A stretch of 64,000 nt of DNA, taken from the NCBI GenBank assembly GCA_964531715.1, contig CAZHEE010000002.1:97676-161675 (forward strand). The letters are read 5' to 3'. A program made the position numbers and the translations under genes. This document shows positions 88 to 62,445 of this stretch, piece by piece; within the stretch, counting starts at the first letter, position 1; each line of letters opens with the position of its first letter. This stretch comes from an uncultured Micavibrio sp. (lineage in GTDB: Bacteria; Pseudomonadota; Alphaproteobacteria; Micavibrionales; UBA1664). Below the pieces are notes generated by a model. It made no database searches, had not been told where the DNA came from, and was given only the letters and a program-made list of their open reading frames with translations.

Positions 88-99
88 TCAAAATTAGCT

Positions 100-141
100 G
101 GATTACAGGTATTTTCCTTTCAGTCAAAACCTGTAATGACG
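100..141. repeat. Solo hairpin of palindromic family A (right-end type, GGATT...AATGACG)
   Basis: GGATTACAGGT-loop-ACCTGTAATGACG with a 9-bp stem ATTACAGGT/ACCTGTAAT. Lies 20 nt downstream of the stop of the minus-strand gene at 161. Confidence 0.75.
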
Positions 142-6230: not shown

Positions 6231-8159
6231 TCAGCTCCCATCCCCAAAATATCGAAGCTGTGGTCCCGCGCCAGTTTTAAGTCTTAAACCATTATTTTTT
6301 GTGTTACCGCGGCTGTCTTCCTCTAACTGCCTTGCATCCTGCGCATTATACTGAAAGTCATCAGGGCTTCGTATTTGGTCAATTCTCTTCTGCCTTGCAC
6401 GCTCATCTTGCTCATTATATTGAAAATCATCGGGGCTTCGAGCGGCATTCCTAGTAGCCTGCCGTTGCTGTTCATCTTGTGCATTATATTGAAAATCATC
6501 GGGACTACGTGCTTGCTGACCTGATTGTCCCTCTAAAGTTTCGTATGTAGCTTGTACATCTGCGAGCTCAGCTTCTGCCTGTTCTAAATTTTCGCGCGCT
6601 TGCGCTACAGCTTGTATATAAGGCCTTTTACCCTTTCCCTTATTTCTGTTTGCTTCCAAAGCTTCTTCAGCATCGGCCAGTTCTTGCCTTGCGTCTGCTA
6701 CCGCCTCTTCAGCTTGATTTAAAGCAACCGGTGATAATTGACGATTAGAGGTGTTGTTATTCGAACCTGATACTCCATCAGCCGCTGTATTACTATTATT
6801 ACCTGCTGTTCTTGCGTATAGTTCTTCAGCTCTTTGCCTTGAAATTTCGCGCTCTTCTGGTGTCATTGGCACAAATCTGCCGGCTTCTCCTGAGGTAACT
6901 GTATCAAGCGCTCTGCTTAATTCATCGCCACGTATAACAGCCTCAATATATGCGGCCTGATCACCTTGCTTTTTCGCTTTCATTGCATCATCAGTTGCTT
7001 TATCAATATGTCTCGCTAATACCATTGCTTTGGTAGTATCTGCAATTTCAGTATCTTTTAATATGTCTTCCATAGTTCTGGAACCTTCTACACCTGCGCC
7101 TGAAGGTGTCACTGATTGACCTTCATTAGAACCTGTAGAGGTGTTGTTATTCGAACCTGATACTCCGTCAGCTGCTGCATTACTATTATTACCTGCTGTT
7201 CTTGCGTATAGTTCTTCAGCTCTTTGCCTTGAAATTTCGCGCTCTTCTGGTGTCATTGGCACAAATCTGCCGGCTTCTCCTGAGGTAACTGTATCAAGCG
7301 CTCTGCTTAATTCATCGCCACGTATAACAGCCTCAATATATGCGGCCTGATCACCTTGCTTTTTCGCTTTCATTGCATCATCAGTTGCTTTATCAATATG
7401 TCTCGCTAATACCATTGCTTTGGTAGTATCTGCAATTTCAGTATCTTTTAATATGTCTTCCATAGTTCTGGAACTTTCTGCACCTGCGCTTGAAGGTGTC
7501 ACTGATTGACCTCCATTAGATTCCATAGAGATGTTGTTATTCGAACCTGATACTCCATCAGCTGCTTTTGCGATGTCATTCACGTTTTTACCAATTTCGT
7601 CAATTTGCTTGACGACTTCTGGACTTACGCGGCTCGCTCCTGTGTTTTCATTCAGATTGCCTCCATTGCTAGATGGCGGATTGCTAGGATTCGAAGAAAC
7701 TGGCTTTAGCATAGCATTTGCAGCTTTTTGCAGGTCTGACATACCTTTATCAACACGTTTGAGACCTTCCATGGCCGCTTCCTGCTGAGTTGTATCTACA
7801 TTTCCCTGACCGCCATTTAAAGGTTCCTGTGAAGCTGAAACTTCCGGAAGAGGCACAGAATATTGTGCTAATACAGAAGTTTCGATCCTATCATATATTG
7901 CTTGCTTTTCTTCAAACCTTGCTTCCGCGGCTTCCAAAATGTTTTCCGCCCCCCTTTTATTGCGACCAGATGCGCTTTGATATCTTTGTTGAGCTTCCTG
8001 CAACTCCTGATAAGCCTGCCCCATTTCTATCTCTGCAGCATTTAATTCATAATAAAGATCGGAATCATCGACTGTTTGAGCATATAAAGGCAGAGCTGTA
8101 AAAGCCAAAACTGACAAAGCAACCCCAAAAAGATATGATTTAAATTTTGTATTCGGCAT
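6231..8159 (-). CDS. Secreted repeat protein (coiled-coil-like, Ser/Asn/Gly-rich linkers)
   Basis: 642 aa. Signal-peptide-like N-terminus MPNTKFKSYLFGVALSVLAFTALPLYAQ. Contains 130-aa tandem repeats and three C-terminal SPDDFQYN motifs. Confidence 0.6.
   Translation of the reverse strand: MPNTKFKSYLFGVALSVLAFTALPLYAQTVDDSDLYYELNAAEIEMGQAYQELQEAQQRYQSASGRNKRGAENILEAAEARFEEKQAIYDRIETSVLAQYSVPLPEVSASQEPLNGGQGNVDTTQQEAAMEGLKRVDKGMSDLQKAANAMLKPVSSNPSNPPSSNGGNLNENTGASRVSPEVVKQIDEIGKNVNDIAKAADGVSGSNNNISMESNGGQSVTPSSAGAESSRTMEDILKDTEIADTTKAMVLARHIDKATDDAMKAKKQGDQAAYIEAVIRGDELSRALDTVTSGEAGRFVPMTPEEREISRQRAEELYARTAGNNSNAAADGVSGSNNNTSTGSNEGQSVTPSGAGVEGSRTMEDILKDTEIADTTKAMVLARHIDKATDDAMKAKKQGDQAAYIEAVIRGDELSRALDTVTSGEAGRFVPMTPEEREISRQRAEELYARTAGNNSNTAADGVSGSNNNTSNRQLSPVALNQAEEAVADARQELADAEEALEANRNKGKGKRPYIQAVAQARENLEQAEAELADVQATYETLEGQSGQQARSPDDFQYNAQDEQQRQATRNAARSPDDFQYNEQDERARQKRIDQIRSPDDFQYNAQDARQLEEDSRGNTKNNGLRLKTGAGPQLRYFGDGS
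6335..6515 (-). repeat. Three spaced copies of a ~30-nt motif encoding RSPDDFQYN(A/E)QD
   Basis: TTATA(C/T)TGAAA(G/A)TCATC(A/G)GG... recurs at about 6345, 6415 and 6485. Confidence 0.7.
6751..7565 (-). repeat. 390-bp tandem repeat, about 2.1 copies, inside the secreted-protein gene
   Basis: Antisense shadow ORFs all begin MLLFEPDTPSAA at 6751, 7141 and 7531, exactly 390 bp apart. A 98-aa block (SRTMEDILKD...RTAGNNSN) is identical in two copies. Confidence 0.9.
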
Positions 8160-10145: not shown

Positions 10146-10222
10146 TTGTCATCCCGAGCGCAGCCGAGGGATCTAATTACTAAATAGATCTCTCCACGCG
10201 CTGCGCTTGGTCGAGATGACAA
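10146..10222. repeat. Palindromic element family C, copy 1 (77 bp)
   Basis: TTGTCATCCCGAG...GGGATCT...AGATCTC...CTCGAGATGACAA-type nested palindrome. It is the reverse-complement relative of 13173..13260 and lies just downstream of the clpB stop. Confidence 0.8.
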
Positions 10223-12869: not shown

Positions 12870-12894
12870 CGTCATTCCGGCGCAGGCCGGAATC
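12870..12894. repeat. Solo hairpin, family D (CGTCATTCCGGC-GCA-GCCGGAATC)
   Basis: 9-bp perfect stem ATTCCGGC(N)GCCGGAAT with the same CGTCATT...AATC frame as family A/B arms. Confidence 0.7.
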
Positions 12895-13060
12895 TATTTA
12901 TTGTTTTATCACTATAATATTAATCTTCTTCCGAAGCGCATCAAGTTTATAAAAGAGCCTCTCATGAGCAATCTCCATAAATTATAATATAGGAATAAAG
13001 TCCTTAATGTCAAATGATTTTTCATCGTAGAGTTATAGAGAAGGGGCGTTGTTTTTAAAA

Positions 13061-13130
13061 CCTCTATATATCTCTGTTTACCTCTGTAGTTCAACTCTAC
13101 AGACTCCGCGTCAAGTGCGGGGATGCGATA
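13061..13130. repeat. Dispersed repeat family E, copy 2
   Basis: CCTCTGTAGTTCAACTCTACAGACTCCGCGTCAAGTGCGGGGATGCGAT aligns with 1..50 and 62384..62445. Confidence 0.6.
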
Positions 13131-13172
13131 GTACGAAAAACTTTTTGCCTTTGCGTCTTATTGTAAGAAATC

Positions 13173-13260
13173 TTGTCATCTCGACCGAATATAATGAGCG
13201 GAGAGATCTGATGCAAAAAGCAGATCCCTCGATTACGCTTTGCTTCACTCGGGATGACAA
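13173..13260. repeat. Palindromic element family C, copy 2 (88 bp, opposite orientation to copy 1)
   Basis: TTGTCATCTCGACC...GGAGAGATCT...AGATCCCTCG...CTCGGGATGACAA. Confidence 0.8.
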
Positions 13261-13327
13261 TTTATTCTTAGAATGAATTACGCCTATTTTCTTAATCATT
13301 AAAAGATGCAATAACAAACGAAGAAAA

Positions 13328-13878: not shown

Positions 13879-15111
13879 TTATCTGTGGATTGCGGTAAAT
13901 ACGCGGTCATGCCCCCCAAGGTCACGGATAACGCGATAGTCGGTAAAGCCAGCACCCCTCGCAATTTCTGCGATTCGTCCACACTGCCCTGCCCCATGCT
14001 CAAGGGCAAGCAAACCACCTTTTTTTAAGTAGTTTCGAATCTGTGGAAGAATCAAGCGATAAGGTCCCAGTCCATCTGCACCACCATCCAAAGCACTATG
14101 CGGATCATAGTTTTTCACTTCCGCTTGAAGCGTTGGGATATCACAACTTTCAATATAAGGCGGGTTTGAGATGATAATATCAAACTGCCCCTCAACCGAG
14201 TCGAACCAATCAGATAGAATAAAAGTAACGCGACTTGAAAGATTTTGTTTTTCGGCATTGAGCCGCGCCACTGTCAGAGCCTCTTTAGAAATATCAGTCG
14301 CGATACCGATTGCATTTGGTAGCTCATTCAAAAGTGTGAGAATCAAACATCCTGAGCCTGTACCTAAATCTAGTATTTTTAAAATTTCGTCATTACACGT
14401 TTTATCTTGAGATAAATACGTGTAATCCATTTTAGTATTTTCCGATGGATTGCACGTATTTTGCTGACGCAAAAAAGTGCAATGACGTAAGACTTCCTCA
14501 ATTAAAGTTTCACTATCAGGGCGCGGGTCAAGGACATGCTCATTCACGTGAAAATCCAGCCCGTAAAACTCTTTCACGCCGATAATTTTTGAGAGAGGCT
14601 TACCTTTTAACCGTTCAGCAAGCATTGATTCAAGTTTTTGATGTTGTTCGGCTGTAAGATTTAAAGAATCATTCGAAATTAGATCTGCATCGCGCATGCC
14701 CGTGATATGCTTAAGCATCATCCGCGCCTCTAATGATGACCCGAGTTGTTTTGAGATATATCTTAAAAAAAACTCGTCATTACACGTTTTACCTTTAGGT
14801 AAATACGTGTAATCCACCTCACCTGTAATCTCGCCATATAAATCAAGCCACTCAGGATTATCTTCTTGGATAAGGTTTATTTTCCATTCTCTGGAATATC
14901 GCCTTAGTCGCTTTTCCCACTGAACAGCATCTTCCCAATTACCGCATTGCCGGTACCAGACAAGTTTTTTTACATTATATTTTGTTGTAAATTTGCTCCC
15001 TATATTATTTTTATGTTGCCAAGTCCGACCAATTAAATTGGATGAAATACCCTTATAAATTGTGCCATTTTTTTGCTTTGCTAGCATGTAGACGTAAAAA
15101 TCTTTTTTCAT
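13879..15111 (-). CDS. prmC: Release-factor glutamine N5-methyltransferase PrmC, read as one ORF with an N-terminal GIY-YIG domain and carrying an in-frame palindromic insert
   Basis: 410-aa ORF. Residues 1-98 align with the stand-alone GIY-YIG ORF at 16315..16611. The rest has PrmC hallmarks ILDLGTGSGCL (motif I) and IISNPPYI (motif IV) and sits directly downstream of prfA. The true prmC initiation codon is uncertain; an in-frame GTG lies inside the hairpin at about 14818. Confidence 0.75.
   Translation of the reverse strand: MKKDFYVYMLAKQKNGTIYKGISSNLIGRTWQHKNNIGSKFTTKYNVKKLVWYRQCGNWEDAVQWEKRLRRYSREWKINLIQEDNPEWLDLYGEITGEVDYTYLPKGKTCNDEFFLRYISKQLGSSLEARMMLKHITGMRDADLISNDSLNLTAEQHQKLESMLAERLKGKPLSKIIGVKEFYGLDFHVNEHVLDPRPDSETLIEEVLRHCTFLRQQNTCNPSENTKMDYTYLSQDKTCNDEILKILDLGTGSGCLILTLLNELPNAIGIATDISKEALTVARLNAEKQNLSSRVTFILSDWFDSVEGQFDIIISNPPYIESCDIPTLQAEVKNYDPHSALDGGADGLGPYRLILPQIRNYLKKGGLLALEHGAGQCGRIAEIARGAGFTDYRVIRDLGGHDRVFTAIHR
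14388..14487. mobile_element. ORF-less 100-bp palindromic mini-element (family A left hairpin + 18-nt spacer + right hairpin) inside prmC
   Basis: Left hairpin CGTCATTACACGT..ACGTGTAATCC (14388..14428) and right hairpin GGATTGCACGT..GTGCAATGACG (14447..14487). Translated in frame as HCTFLRQQNTCNPSENTKMDYTYLSQDKTCNDE just before PrmC motif I. Confidence 0.8.
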
Positions 15112-15167
15112 TGATTATCTCTGAGATGGATTACACGTATTTATCTTCGATAAAACGTGTAATGACG
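14775..15167 (-). mobile_element. GIY-YIG element copy 1: left hairpin, GIY-YIG ORF, right hairpin
   Basis: Left hairpin at 14775..14815 and right hairpin at 15128..15167 are 40-bp inverted repeats of each other. The GIY-YIG coding part (about 14816..15111) begins MKKDFYVYMLAKQKNGTIYKG. The element fills the prfA-prmC junction. Confidence 0.75.
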
Positions 15168-16269: not shown

Positions 16270-16676
16270 CGTCATTGCACGTTTGCTAAAAGCTATACGT
16301 GCAATCCATAAACGTCAAAGCCCGCATATATTATCATATAAATCTAACCATTCGGGGCTATTTTCCTCAATCAAATTAATCTTCCACTGACGAGAATATC
16401 GCCGCAAGCACTTTTCCCAATTTACAGCCTCTTCCCAAGTGCCGCAGTGATGGTACCAAACCAGTTTCTTTATATCATATCGAGATGTGAATTTACTACC
16501 GATATTATTTTTATGTTGCCAAGTGCGACCAATTAAATTTGATGACATGCCTTTATAGATTGTACCATGCTTTTGTTTGGCTAGCATGTAAACATAAAAA
16601 TCTTTTTCCATTTTATCATCTTACTTTTGCGATTATGGATTGCACGTATTTTTCTTCGAAAAAACGTGCAATGACG
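16270..16676 (-). mobile_element. GIY-YIG element copy 2: left hairpin, GIY-YIG ORF, right hairpin (407 bp)
   Basis: Left hairpin CGTCATTGCACGT..ACGTGCAATCC at 16270..16307, ORF at 16315..16611, right hairpin GGATTGCACGT..ACGTGCAATGACG at 16637..16676. Lies between the prfA start and the ispG stop. Confidence 0.8.
16315..16611 (-). CDS. GIY-YIG (URI-domain) nuclease, catalytic core only
   Basis: 98 aa: FYVYML...GTIYKG...NLIGRTWQH...WEK pattern. 77 of 98 residues are identical to the N-terminus of the 13879..15111 ORF by manual alignment. Confidence 0.8.
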   Translation of the reverse strand: MEKDFYVYMLAKQKHGTIYKGMSSNLIGRTWQHKNNIGSKFTSRYDIKKLVWYHHCGTWEEAVNWEKCLRRYSRQWKINLIEENSPEWLDLYDNICGL

Positions 16677-31637: not shown

Positions 31638-31728
31638 CGTCATTGCGAGAAGCGGAGCGACGAAGCAATCCATACAGTCTCTAACATCTTATGGATTGCC
31701 GCGGTCGCGTTGCTCCCTCGCAATGACA
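31638..31728. repeat. Palindromic element family B, copy 1 (91 bp) between convergent mgtE and pcm
   Basis: CGTCATTGCGAG..GCAATCCATA-(centre)-TATGGATTGC..CTCGCAATGACA. Each arm is itself an ATTGC...GCAAT hairpin. Confidence 0.8.
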
Positions 31729-36516: not shown

Positions 36517-36630
36517 CGTCATTGCGAGGGAGCCCCTGCCTTCGTAGAGGGCAGGCGTTGCGACCGCGGCAATCCATAGAACATTAAAGACTGTATGGAT
36601 TGCTTCGTCGCTCCGCTTCTCGCAAAGACG
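36517..36630. repeat. Palindromic element family B, copy 2 (114 bp, inverted relative to copy 1, with an extra internal hairpin) between convergent cckA and lpdA
   Basis: CGTCATTGCGAGGGAGC[CCCTGCCttcgtagaGGGCAGG]CGTTGCGACCGCGGCAATCCATA...TATGGATTGCTTCGTCGCTCCGCTTCTCGCAAAGACG. Confidence 0.8.
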
Positions 36631-40536: not shown

Positions 40537-41508
40537 ATGCTTAATCCGTTTCAGGCCATGCAAAAGGCAGTGGACATCGTTAATGACAGTGAGCATATCA
40601 AAAATAAAATTGCCGCCTGTTTGTTTCAAACATCACCGTCATCCTCCGACTTGATCGGGGGATCTTCTTCCGAGGGGAATCCTTTGGTCAAGCCAAAGGA
40701 CGACGTTTACATAGCGCGATATAATCATCGCCCTGACAGACTAAAAAACAAGCTCTCACCCGATAAGCGTATAGGTGACAGCAGCCAGTTCCTCCATGCC
40801 GAGGTCGCCTGCATCTTCGCCGCTGACTTTCCGACTGAAGGCGCAAGCCTATGCATCACTGACCCGTTTTGCCCGAATTGCGCGAAAGCCATCAGCGAGG
40901 CGGGGATAGCCCATGTTTATATTGACCATAAAGGTATTGAGAAAGATTTTTTTGTCCGCAGAAGAGATGTGTTTGAGGCCTTGTCACTCAATATTTTGAG
41001 GCAAGAAGGCATTGGTGTTGCCATTCTTAATCGTAAAAAAAGAACATATCAAATAGTGCTTGAACCACAAAAAATTTCTAAAAAAGAAACAGATTTAATT
41101 ATTTTAAAACAATCAGATAATTCAATTTCATTATCTGATTTATTAAAGAAAAATAAAGCGTTTTATCCTGATAAAAATTTCGCGATTGCTTTCATCAAAG
41201 ATAGAGAAGATCAAATTTGCGCTTTTACTATATTTGAAAAATCTTATGATAGCCTTCACGATGTTAATCCATCCGACAAATACAGTGTGATGATTGACCC
41301 CGTCAACCGCCTCCTCTATCACTGCGCGCGCCATGGCTATCAAATTTTGAATCAAGAGATAGCAACAAATATCACCCCCTCGAACCGCGCAATCGTGAAT
41401 GCAATCGGTTATAATATTCACAAGATTATAAGCACTTGGCATGATACAGAGGGCAGTAACCGCAATATTTTAAACGATTTGGATATAATCTCTGTTAAAT
41501 CTTGCTAA
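40537..41508 (+). CDS. Cytidine/deoxycytidylate deaminase-like zinc-binding protein with a C-terminal extension
   Basis: 323 aa. HAEVACI ... DPFCPNCAKAI (H-A-E / PCxxC zinc motif). Residues 34-56 are encoded by a palindromic insert. Confidence 0.6.
   Translation: MLNPFQAMQKAVDIVNDSEHIKNKIAACLFQTSPSSSDLIGGSSSEGNPLVKPKDDVYIARYNHRPDRLKNKLSPDKRIGDSSQFLHAEVACIFAADFPTEGASLCITDPFCPNCAKAISEAGIAHVYIDHKGIEKDFFVRRRDVFEALSLNILRQEGIGVAILNRKKRTYQIVLEPQKISKKETDLIILKQSDNSISLSDLLKKNKAFYPDKNFAIAFIKDREDQICAFTIFEKSYDSLHDVNPSDKYSVMIDPVNRLLYHCARHGYQILNQEIATNITPSNRAIVNAIGYNIHKIISTWHDTEGSNRNILNDLDIISVKSC
40637..40705. repeat. 69-bp (23-codon) palindromic insert, family C-like, in frame in the deaminase-like gene
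   Basis: Left arm CGTCATCCTCCGACTTGATCGGGGGATC. The right arm contains a perfect 8-bp hairpin TCCTTTGG-tcaag-CCAAAGGA followed by CGACG. Encodes PSSSDLIGGSSSEGNPLVKPKDD. Confidence 0.55.
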
Positions 41509-62297: not shown

Positions 62298-62325
62298 TTA
62301 AAACACGAAGGTAATTCTTAGTAGT

Positions 62326-62363
62326 GGATTACAGGTATTTGCTTCGCAAAACCTGCAATGACG
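62326..62363. repeat. Solo hairpin of palindromic family A (right-end type)
   Basis: GGATTACAGGT-loop-ACCTGCAATGACG. Same stem variant as 100..141, with one mismatch. Confidence 0.75.
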
Positions 62364-62383: not shown

Positions 62384-62445
62384 TACCTCTATTTTCCTCT
62401 GTAGTTCAAACCCTAAAGACCCCGCATTAAATGCGGGTTACATTG
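62384..62445. repeat. Dispersed repeat family E, copy 3
   Basis: TACCTCTATTTTCCTCTGTAGTTCAAACCCTAAAGACCCCGCATTAAATGCGGGTTACATT aligns with 13061..13130 and 1..50. Confidence 0.6.

Follow-up and report, generated by a model that had tools for sequence, protein, structure and literature searches.

Within the prmC gene (release-factor glutamine methyltransferase) of an uncultured Micavibrio sp. lies a 100-bp element that has no open reading frame (ORF) of its own and consists of two CGTC-tagged hairpins in inverted order. It occupies positions 14388-14487 of the stretch analysed here, 64,000 nucleotides of contig CAZHEE010000002.1 (GenBank assembly GCA_964531715.1), hereafter the window, and hairpins of the same kind bracket two small GIY-YIG genes close by, ssn A and ssn B, whose products are predicted single-strand nucleases of the Ssn family. 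We think it likely that this dimer is the counterpart, in the CGTC/Ssn system, of the REPINs of RAYT/REPIN systems, that its hairpins are recognition sites of the cognate Ssn enzymes, and that it entered prmC as an in-frame insertion resembling the Rickettsia palindromic elements (RPEs). A preliminary description of the same DNA had instead read the element as an internal-deletion derivative of the nuclease-encoding unit, related to it as a MITE (a miniature transposable element with inverted repeats) is to an autonomous insertion sequence (IS).

Results

Anatomy of the 100-bp dimer

The element reads CGTCATTACACGT-TTTATCTTGAGATAAAT-ACGTGTAATCCA, a 16-nt spacer and TGGATTGCACGT-ATTTTGCTGACGCAAAAA-AGTGCAATGACG, and each of its two hairpins has a CGTC tag, a 9-bp stem and a CCA tail (Table 1). 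The preliminary description had given two hairpins with an 18-nt join and the inner junctions ...AATCC/ATGGATT, which proved right in every detail, the 16 nt between the CCA/TGG tails being the same spacing as 18 nt between ...AATCC and GGATT.... The termini of the dimer, CGTCATTACACGT and AAGTGCAATGACG, are complementary at 11 of 13 positions and the full arms at 78% across 46 nt, and terminal inverted repeats, small size and lack of an own ORF together give it the outward form of a MITE. The right-arm stem forms eight of its nine pairs. The 12-nt leader 5' of the left arm (14376-14387) contains no G; the right-arm leader, composed of prmC codons, contains four.

The 13-mer CGTCATTACACGT, with up to two mismatches allowed, occurs eight times in the window against 0.83 expected, a count that none of 100 shuffles reached. 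A strict hairpin scan of the window (GTC, a stem of at least 7 bp, CC) returned only six arms, belonging to three elements, and one solo copy; a relaxed scan added a second solo copy. Folded as single-stranded DNA, a 120-nt stretch reaches -24 kcal/mol on either strand, compared with shuffle means of -9.2 and -9.6 (z = -5.7 and -6.3), and the predicted shapes of the dimer are two side-by-side hairpins or a four-way junction.

The RNA fold of the dimer is also strong (-37.6 kcal/mol, z = -6.6), and repetitive extragenic palindromes (REPs) are often transcribed and located at the 3' ends of genes (PMC3733652), as would suit a nuclease-independent RNA feature such as a terminator, an mRNA stabiliser or a translational pause site. 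Yet the dimer sits in the middle of the coding sequence of an essential-type gene and is read through, there is no terminator-like site at it, and the Rfam scan of the whole window returned four tRNAs only, none of them at the dimer. Moreover, the conservation of tag and tail is oriented and DNA-strand-specific, and SsnA, the Neisseria member of the Ssn family, is inactive on RNA (PMC11893778). We regard an RNA-level role as highly improbable.

The same hairpins bracket two Ssn-family genes

As the preliminary description had proposed, the two GIY-YIG ORFs, the only GIY-YIG genes in the 64-kb window, are bracketed by the hairpins of the dimer (units A and B, 14775-15167 and 16270-16676). In each unit a forward hairpin is followed by a leader of 14-23 nt, a minus-strand GIY-YIG ORF of 98 codons and a reversed hairpin, with the hairpins 14-23 nt 5' of the ATG and 0-6 nt 3' of the ORF. 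Unit A lies 5 nt past the prfA stop codon and unit B between ispG and prfA; the two thus flank prfA, and together with the dimer they fall within 2.3 kb. The same hairpin-flanked layout, with these distances to the ORF, recurs at eight distinct related ssn loci in other genomes.

Chenal et al. (2025) showed that in many bacteria a small GIY-YIG gene, ssnA, is flanked by hairpins, those of Neisseria being the NTS (CGTCATTCCCGCG...GGGAATC) and related ones 'SRM' (PMC11893778). For SsnA to bind, the hairpin must be in single-stranded DNA, and the cut falls a few nucleotides 5' of the CGTC tag; the cleavage data come from the Neisseria and Wolbachia enzymes, and the complementary strand is ignored (PMC11893778). 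In place of Nm SsnA we used its gonococcal orthologue, taken from an N. gonorrhoeae chromosome mislabelled in the PLSDB plasmid collection. This ORF has 94 aa, with Y6, Y17 and E64 as in the mutants of the paper, and 10 NTS copies lie around it. A tblastn search of the N. gonorrhoeae chromosome with the window protein gave E = 1e-18, the cut-off for Ssn homology in the paper being a BLAST E < 1e-10 (PMC11893778). Alignment to gonococcal SsnA by BLASTP showed 44% identity, gapless over 89-90 residues (E = 1e-28 for B and 4e-29 for A), and in both window proteins Y8, Y19 and E66 take the places of the catalytic Y6, Y17 and E64. Pfam GIY-YIG was matched at E = 6.5e-10 and 4.1e-10 by the two proteins; NCBIfam holds no model for the 98-aa protein, and a PDB sequence search with it returned distant UPF0213 proteins only. 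Copy B is a single domain of 98 aa, below 150 aa like other small Ssn proteins, and in copy A this 98-aa domain is fused in frame to PrmC, for a total of 410 aa, a departure from the family norm. Judged by these alignments, both ORFs are Ssn-family proteins (cd10448-type) and predicted single-stranded DNA nucleases.

The two genes are far from identical. Their products share 79% of residues, the non-synonymous difference pN is 0.115, the synonymous difference pS is 0.78 (saturated), and third-position identity is 53%. Because synonymous sites are saturated while pN is low, ssn A and ssn B are, by their sequences, old duplicates under purifying selection and not products of recent transposition. 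In comparison, the hairpins of units A and B, at 75-88% identity, have changed less than silent sites, as would be expected if the ssn-flanking hairpins were functionally constrained.

The dimer is an in-frame insertion in prmC

The minus-strand ORF 13879..15111 encodes a protein of 410 aa that is PrmC by TIGR03534 (E = 1.6e-80), with the GIY-YIG domain at its N-terminus. Where PrmC orthologues begin MRLRDISKQL, the sequence here reads ...NDEFFLRYISKQL, and the downstream hairpin of unit A (from 14775) is translated as the linker VDYTYLPKGKTCNDE leading into prmC. The dimer itself is translated in frame as RHCTFLRQQNTCNPSENTKMDYTYLSQDKTCND. No stop codon interrupts the prmC frame through the dimer; all three plus-strand frames have stops. 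The insertion site is the loop between the N-terminal domain and the motif ILDLGTGSG, which spans 45 residues here compared with usually 16-20 among 117 PrmC orthologues. Most of these orthologues have no insert in the loop, including the closest one, which is 61% identical by BLASTP and 64% in the alignment. The loop that holds the dimer is, as far as the orthologues tell, a permissive surface loop of the kind that takes up Rickettsia RPEs. Since it lies in frame in this loop and is translated, the dimer behaves like a Rickettsia palindromic element, an in-frame insertion tolerated in a protein loop.

The same loop appears as a hot spot, with repeat-like inserts in 12 of the 117 orthologues (sites noted: the window, L026 prmC and PrmC orthologues P0003-P0006, P0018, P0019, P0027, P0048, P0064, P0088 and P0100). 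In the window and in L026, different hairpin families start from the same prmC codon (TTA|CGT CAT TGC and ATA|CGT CAT TGC, respectively), the CGTC-to-GACG lengths of these prmC inserts are both 3n+1 (100 nt in the window, 82 nt in L026), and about six residues of the usual loop are missing in both proteins. In a neighbour-joining tree of the orthologues (no support values) the insert-bearing proteins are scattered, a distribution that fits independent insertion and repeated loss alike. The N-terminus MILKDFYT of PrmC P0048 was considered as an ssn remnant and rejected as evidence of deletion derivatives, the DNA there having no CGTC hairpins and a CTTAGTG palindrome instead.

An in-frame Ssn::PrmC fusion 3' of prfA is also present in two other lineages (L026, 4001-5230; L028, 3447-4583), whose PrmC proteins are about 49-59% identical. 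The fusion data suggest a long-lived arrangement that ties an important gene to a nuclease gene.

Hybrid stems argue against a single internal deletion

The preliminary description proposed that the mini copy arose from a hairpin-ssn-hairpin unit by a single internal deletion, as a MITE to the autonomous IS of the full unit. Several features agree with such an origin. The end hairpins are the same, in the same inverted order, and the inner junctions ...CCAT/ATGG... are kept. In unit B, ATGGA is found at the start codon of ssn and again where the downstream hairpin has its inner edge, so that a microhomology-mediated deletion could remove exactly the ORF. In addition, the spacer of the dimer aligns with the leader of a related ssn locus (L032) in 16 matches over 18 columns, with one mismatch and one gap.

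Other features speak against it. The stem is ATTACACGT at each end of unit A and ATTGCACGT at each end of unit B; the mini copy combines the two, with an A-type left stem and a B-type right one. Given these hybrid stems, the mini copy is unlikely to be a single-deletion product of unit A or unit B. When its spacer was compared with ssn 5' leaders, 169 of 2000 shuffles scored as well in one orientation and 93 of 2000 in the other, so the similarity is not significant and neither orientation is favoured. ORF-less dimers at large often have the CCAT tail, so ATGG need not be the remnant of a start codon. Neither intermediate-sized deletion derivatives nor GIY-YIG fragments between hairpins were found in any locus examined, and the divergence of A and B is ancient. 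No direct repeats indicative of a target-site duplication flank the mini copy, either ssn unit or the dimers of relatives, and for this reason the classical IS/MITE model does not fit. Taken together, we hold a deletion origin to be improbable.

The kinship of the arms with the ssn-flanking hairpins withstood comparison with the other hairpin families: the identity of the arms is 0.77-0.91 with the hairpins around ssn, and does not exceed 0.61 with 'family B' or the short canonical hairpins. An assignment of the arms to the 'upstream' and 'downstream' hairpin types seen in heterodimers of relatives was not robust in this window and was dropped, the left arm being 0.91 identical to the upstream and 0.89 to the downstream hairpin of unit A.

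ORF-less dimers are dispersed in related genomes

Pattern scans of genome and metagenome contigs returned 24 loci. Nineteen of these come from genomes, all of them Micavibrio, Rhodospirillales or unclassified alphaproteobacterial metagenome-assembled genomes (MAGs), and the other five are metagenome contigs. The hairpins in these loci are mostly paired into dimers without an ORF, 60-100 bp long, in which the tags point outward and the tails inward across a spacer of 0-27 nt. Counting that of the window there are 19 such dimers, the 18 others measuring 60-98 bp. In one MAG, three copies lie on separate contigs and are 92-96% identical, much of the spacer included; their flanks are mostly unrelated, so the dimer is a dispersed repeat unit in its own right. 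On this evidence, ORF-less dimers of 81-100 bp make up a separate, established class that is scattered through related genomes of Micavibrio type.

In the tag, stem and tail, positions G2-T6 and T22-C24 are invariant among 34 distinct variants, features that the selection pattern itself required. Seven of the nine stem pairs change on both sides; as the hairpins were selected for pairing, this covariation is circular and carries little weight.

The ssn genes of relatives carry a short hairpin form, CGTCATTACACGGCTTGTCCGTGTAATCCA, and recur in a few places, either directly after prfA (L032-L034) or between sufB and sufC (L029-L031, L035-L037). The homologues in L029-L037 are flanked by short 30-nt hairpins. 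These recurrent operon positions look like vertical inheritance or strong site preference.

The conserved positions bear on an alternative in which the hairpins are domesticated and immobile, Ssn is a vertically inherited host system for control of recombination or of incoming single-stranded DNA, and the prmC dimer is old and harmless. Fixed operon positions of ssn in several lineages, the prmC fusion in three, strong purifying selection on ssn and the conservation of the hairpins beyond that of third positions all agree with it, as do the slight decay of the right arm of the mini copy and, in Neisseria, the role of Ssn in transformation and the domestication hypothesis put forward for it (PMC11893778). 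However, the near-identical dimers at unrelated loci of one related MAG and the different hairpin families at the same prmC codon across lineages indicate continuing or recurrent spread, and the original arrival of the copies would be left unexplained. We therefore consider full domestication a possibility, though a rather doubtful one.

A G-depleted leader precedes the tag

In 79 hairpins, taken from the window and from loci L002-L035, G is scarce on the tag strand, and on that strand only, in the 12 nt lying 5' of the CGTC tag (7-8% vs 23%, p about 1e-18). Beyond position -18 the composition is back to background, and C is not depleted. Position -1 is a pyrimidine in 64 of the 79 hairpins, with CAT as the commonest trinucleotide at -3..-1 (7/79). 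Gonococcal NTS copies show the trend too, as do the window's other CGTC families, whereas the right arm of the mini copy, with its four G, breaks it. The 12-nt stretch is roughly the size of the ~9-nt 5' stretch that SsnA needs for cutting, and the depletion would fit a constraint on single-stranded DNA where SsnA cuts. Some hairpin copies inside one MAG share a leader of 7-10 nt.

Other repeats in the window

The preliminary description had attributed the same two-armed outline to 91- and 114-bp elements of a 'family B', and both are as it outlined them, at 31638-31728 and 36517-36630. CGTC/TGTC-tagged hairpins of other sub-families lie at 12870-12897, 40637-40667, 10147-10174 and 13222-13259, the latter two being of the type TGTCATCCCGAG...GGGATC, and the clpB-DUF4167 intergenic region (12870-13320) is dense with repeats. 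Further repeat families were noted at 61-95, 27-63, 13107-13143 and ~62415-62440, and in L041 at 1425-1497, and another repeat family of the window is a CGCATTAAGTGCGGGG-type hairpin. A CTTAGTG motif, present three times, adjoins the solo hairpin at 99-141; in another genome a long CTTAGTG palindrome separates prfA from prmC. The minus-strand segment 6231-8159 is a 642-aa ORF with a signal-peptide-like N-terminus and a 390-bp tandem repeat (6746-7566, 2.1 copies, 96% matches), with more repeats of 23 residues (SPDDFQYN) close to its C-terminus. Between 48000 and 52000 the GC content is 0.34-0.37 compared with ~0.44 elsewhere, and this segment may be an acquired island.

Table 1 Coordinates of the dimer, the ssn units, the host gene and the other CGTC hairpins in the window
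Feature	Position	Strand	Description
prmC, host gene of the dimer	13879..14774	-	No own start codon; forms a fusion with ssn copy A
ORF-less inverted dimer of two CGTC-tagged hairpins	14388..14487		Translated as 33 in-frame prmC codons on the minus strand
Left arm of the dimer	14388..14429	+	CGTC, 9-bp stem ATTACACGT/ACGTGTAAT, 17-nt loop holding a small stem, CCA
Spacer of the dimer	14430..14445		16 nt between the CCA/TGG tails; no significant likeness to ssn 5' leaders
Right arm of the dimer	14446..14487	-	CGTC...CCA on the minus strand; stem ATTGCACtT/ACGTGCAAT, one mismatch
Unit A	14775..15167	-	Hairpin 15127-15167 (forward on minus), 14-nt leader, ssn ORF from 15111 down to 14818, hairpin starting at 14775
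Unit B	16270..16676	-	Hairpin 16636-16676, 23-nt leader, ssn ORF 16315..16611 (98 aa), hairpin 16270-16308
Solo hairpin of the dimer's family	99..141	-	Stem ATTACAGGT
Solo hairpin of the dimer's family	62325..62363	-	Stem ATTGCAGGT/ACCTGTAAT
'Family B' CGTC-REP dimer, 91 bp	31638..31728		CGTCATTGCGAG...GCAATCCATA / TATGGATTGC...CTCGCAATGACA
'Family B' dimer, 114 bp	36517..36630		Left arm with an additional small internal hairpin
Short canonical hairpin	12870..12897	+	Fits the published SRM search pattern
Short canonical hairpin	40637..40667	+	Fits the published SRM search pattern

Discussion

The repeats of the window belong with two bodies of published work. The CGTC-tagged REP superfamily described by Di Nocera in 2013 is marked by an unpaired CGTC tag, a stem of 8-9 bp opening with AT, an unpaired CCA tail and the frequent pairing of its repeats into inverted heterodimers (PMC3733652). 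Such repeats are common in Alphaproteobacteria including Micavibrio, count Rickettsia RPE-4 and RPE-6 and Neisseria dRS3 among their members, and as intragenic dimers add 20-30 residues to proteins (PMC3733652). All six arms and both solo copies of the window have the CGTC tag, the AT-first stem and the CCA tail, and the inverted (hetero)dimers with short spacers and the intragenic dimers are shared as well. Unlike the published families, for which that work found no associated enzyme and which it said 'lack a dedicated transposase' (PMC3733652), the window hairpins flank ssn genes. With the Ssn/NTS/SRM system the window has in common a single-domain GIY-YIG protein of ~94-98 aa with the catalytic Tyr/Tyr/Glu kept, CGTCAT-tagged hairpins that bracket its gene, and extra hairpin copies without the gene. 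It differs from that system in its A/T-rich 9-bp stems and structured loops of 14-18 nt, in flanking hairpins that are strictly inverted with tags outward, and in the fusion of one ssn copy to prmC.

The authors of the Ssn work likened the NTS-ssnA-NTS arrangement to an insertion sequence and to RAYT/REP systems (PMC11893778), and the latter comparison suits the window well. As in REPIN/RAYT systems, two inverted hairpins and a short spacer make up an ORF-less replicating unit without target-site duplication, and the enzyme gene is flanked by the same hairpins, present in few copies and vertically inherited. The two systems part in their tags and chemistry, a GTAG tag and a covalent HUH-Y1 transposase there, CGTC and a hydrolytic GIY-YIG nuclease here; neither the GTAG tag nor the HUH-Y1 transposase was found at this locus, the rest of the window not having been scanned for RAYT. 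Classical MITEs are likewise small, ORF-less and bounded by terminal inverted repeats, with ends common to a larger coding unit. However, the dimer lacks a target-site duplication, its 'parent' encodes no known transposase, and an origin from the local full copies by a single deletion is improbable. By analogy, then, the relation appears to be that of an enzyme-encoding unit and an ORF-less partner sharing its recognition hairpins, as in RAYT/REPIN, and not that of an IS and its deletion MITE. The autonomous versus non-autonomous relationship of the preliminary description thus stands in so far as a nuclease unit accompanied by ORF-less dimers matches the RAYT/REPIN analogy (PMC11893778); its IS and deletion-MITE form is not supported, and the ssn copies, old and at conserved positions, do not look like recently transposing autonomous ones. 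The idea of such a relationship had already been raised for the Ssn system and remains unproven.

The anatomy suggests how the REPIN-like dimer could be served by Ssn. Each strand of a full or mini element carries one forward hairpin, at its 5' boundary, so that the mini copy would in principle be as good a substrate in trans as the full units. Ssn would be expected to nick both strands immediately beyond the element, one at either end. Such nicks might fall on single strands exposed at forks, during transcription or in incoming DNA, and host replication or repair could then copy or maintain the dimers, a last step to which we attach low confidence. The mini copy would, on this account, not have been made by deletion of either local ssn unit.

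Several observations weigh against the reading of the dimer as a REPIN counterpart with cognate Ssn sites. The published SRM search pattern, HGTCWYN(0-2)YYVSBRHN(0-5)WNVSBRGN(0-2)RNCYNB, fits the hairpins at 12870 and 40637 but neither the arms of the dimer nor the hairpins around ssn. The loops of these arms and ssn hairpins, 14-18 nt with a secondary small stem, contrast with loops of 4-5 nt in four published CGTC families. The failure of the pattern and the longer loops make the window hairpins, by sequence, a long-loop variant of the CGTC repeat. The mini copy may also be old and partly decayed, as its right-arm stem mismatch and G-containing leader indicate, and may no longer be a substrate, and it is the single such dimer within the 64-kb window. 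The conserved places of ssn, after prfA and between sufB and sufC, fit domestication better than active transposition. Finally, we know of no strand-transfer chemistry for the GIY-YIG Ssn enzyme; a hydrolytic nuclease that makes one cut per strand has, to our knowledge, no way to excise and re-insert DNA.

A bolder view holds that hairpin-ssn-hairpin units and dimers constitute a class of transposon driven by a GIY-YIG single-strand nickase, neither DDE nor HUH. We consider this unlikely at present, though worth stating. If it were true, the prmC codon and the prfA/prmC junction occupied in separate lineages would be its signatures, together with CGTC-to-GACG lengths of 3n+1 and the one-strand G-free 12-nt leader, and the Ssn::PrmC fusion, by removing the prmC start codon, would be an addiction device that retains the element.

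A system of repeats plus nuclease has already been described (2013, 2025), and we found nothing in the literature more specific than the CGTC REP and Ssn papers. The dimer is thus a new example only, not a new kind of element, and what is new here is the long-loop hairpin variant in a Micavibrio-like lineage. By itself the locus leaves present knowledge unchanged. Its value lies in what it brings together, since the CGTC REPs, including the intragenic Rickettsia elements, have had no known mobilising enzyme since their description, and Ssn is the only candidate. With two intact ssn genes and their hairpins, a mixed-stem dimer and an insertion for which many insert-free orthologues exist, the locus is a compact natural test case. 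It poses the questions of whether Ssn copies the hairpins, which flank features are needed, and how such repeats enter proteins.

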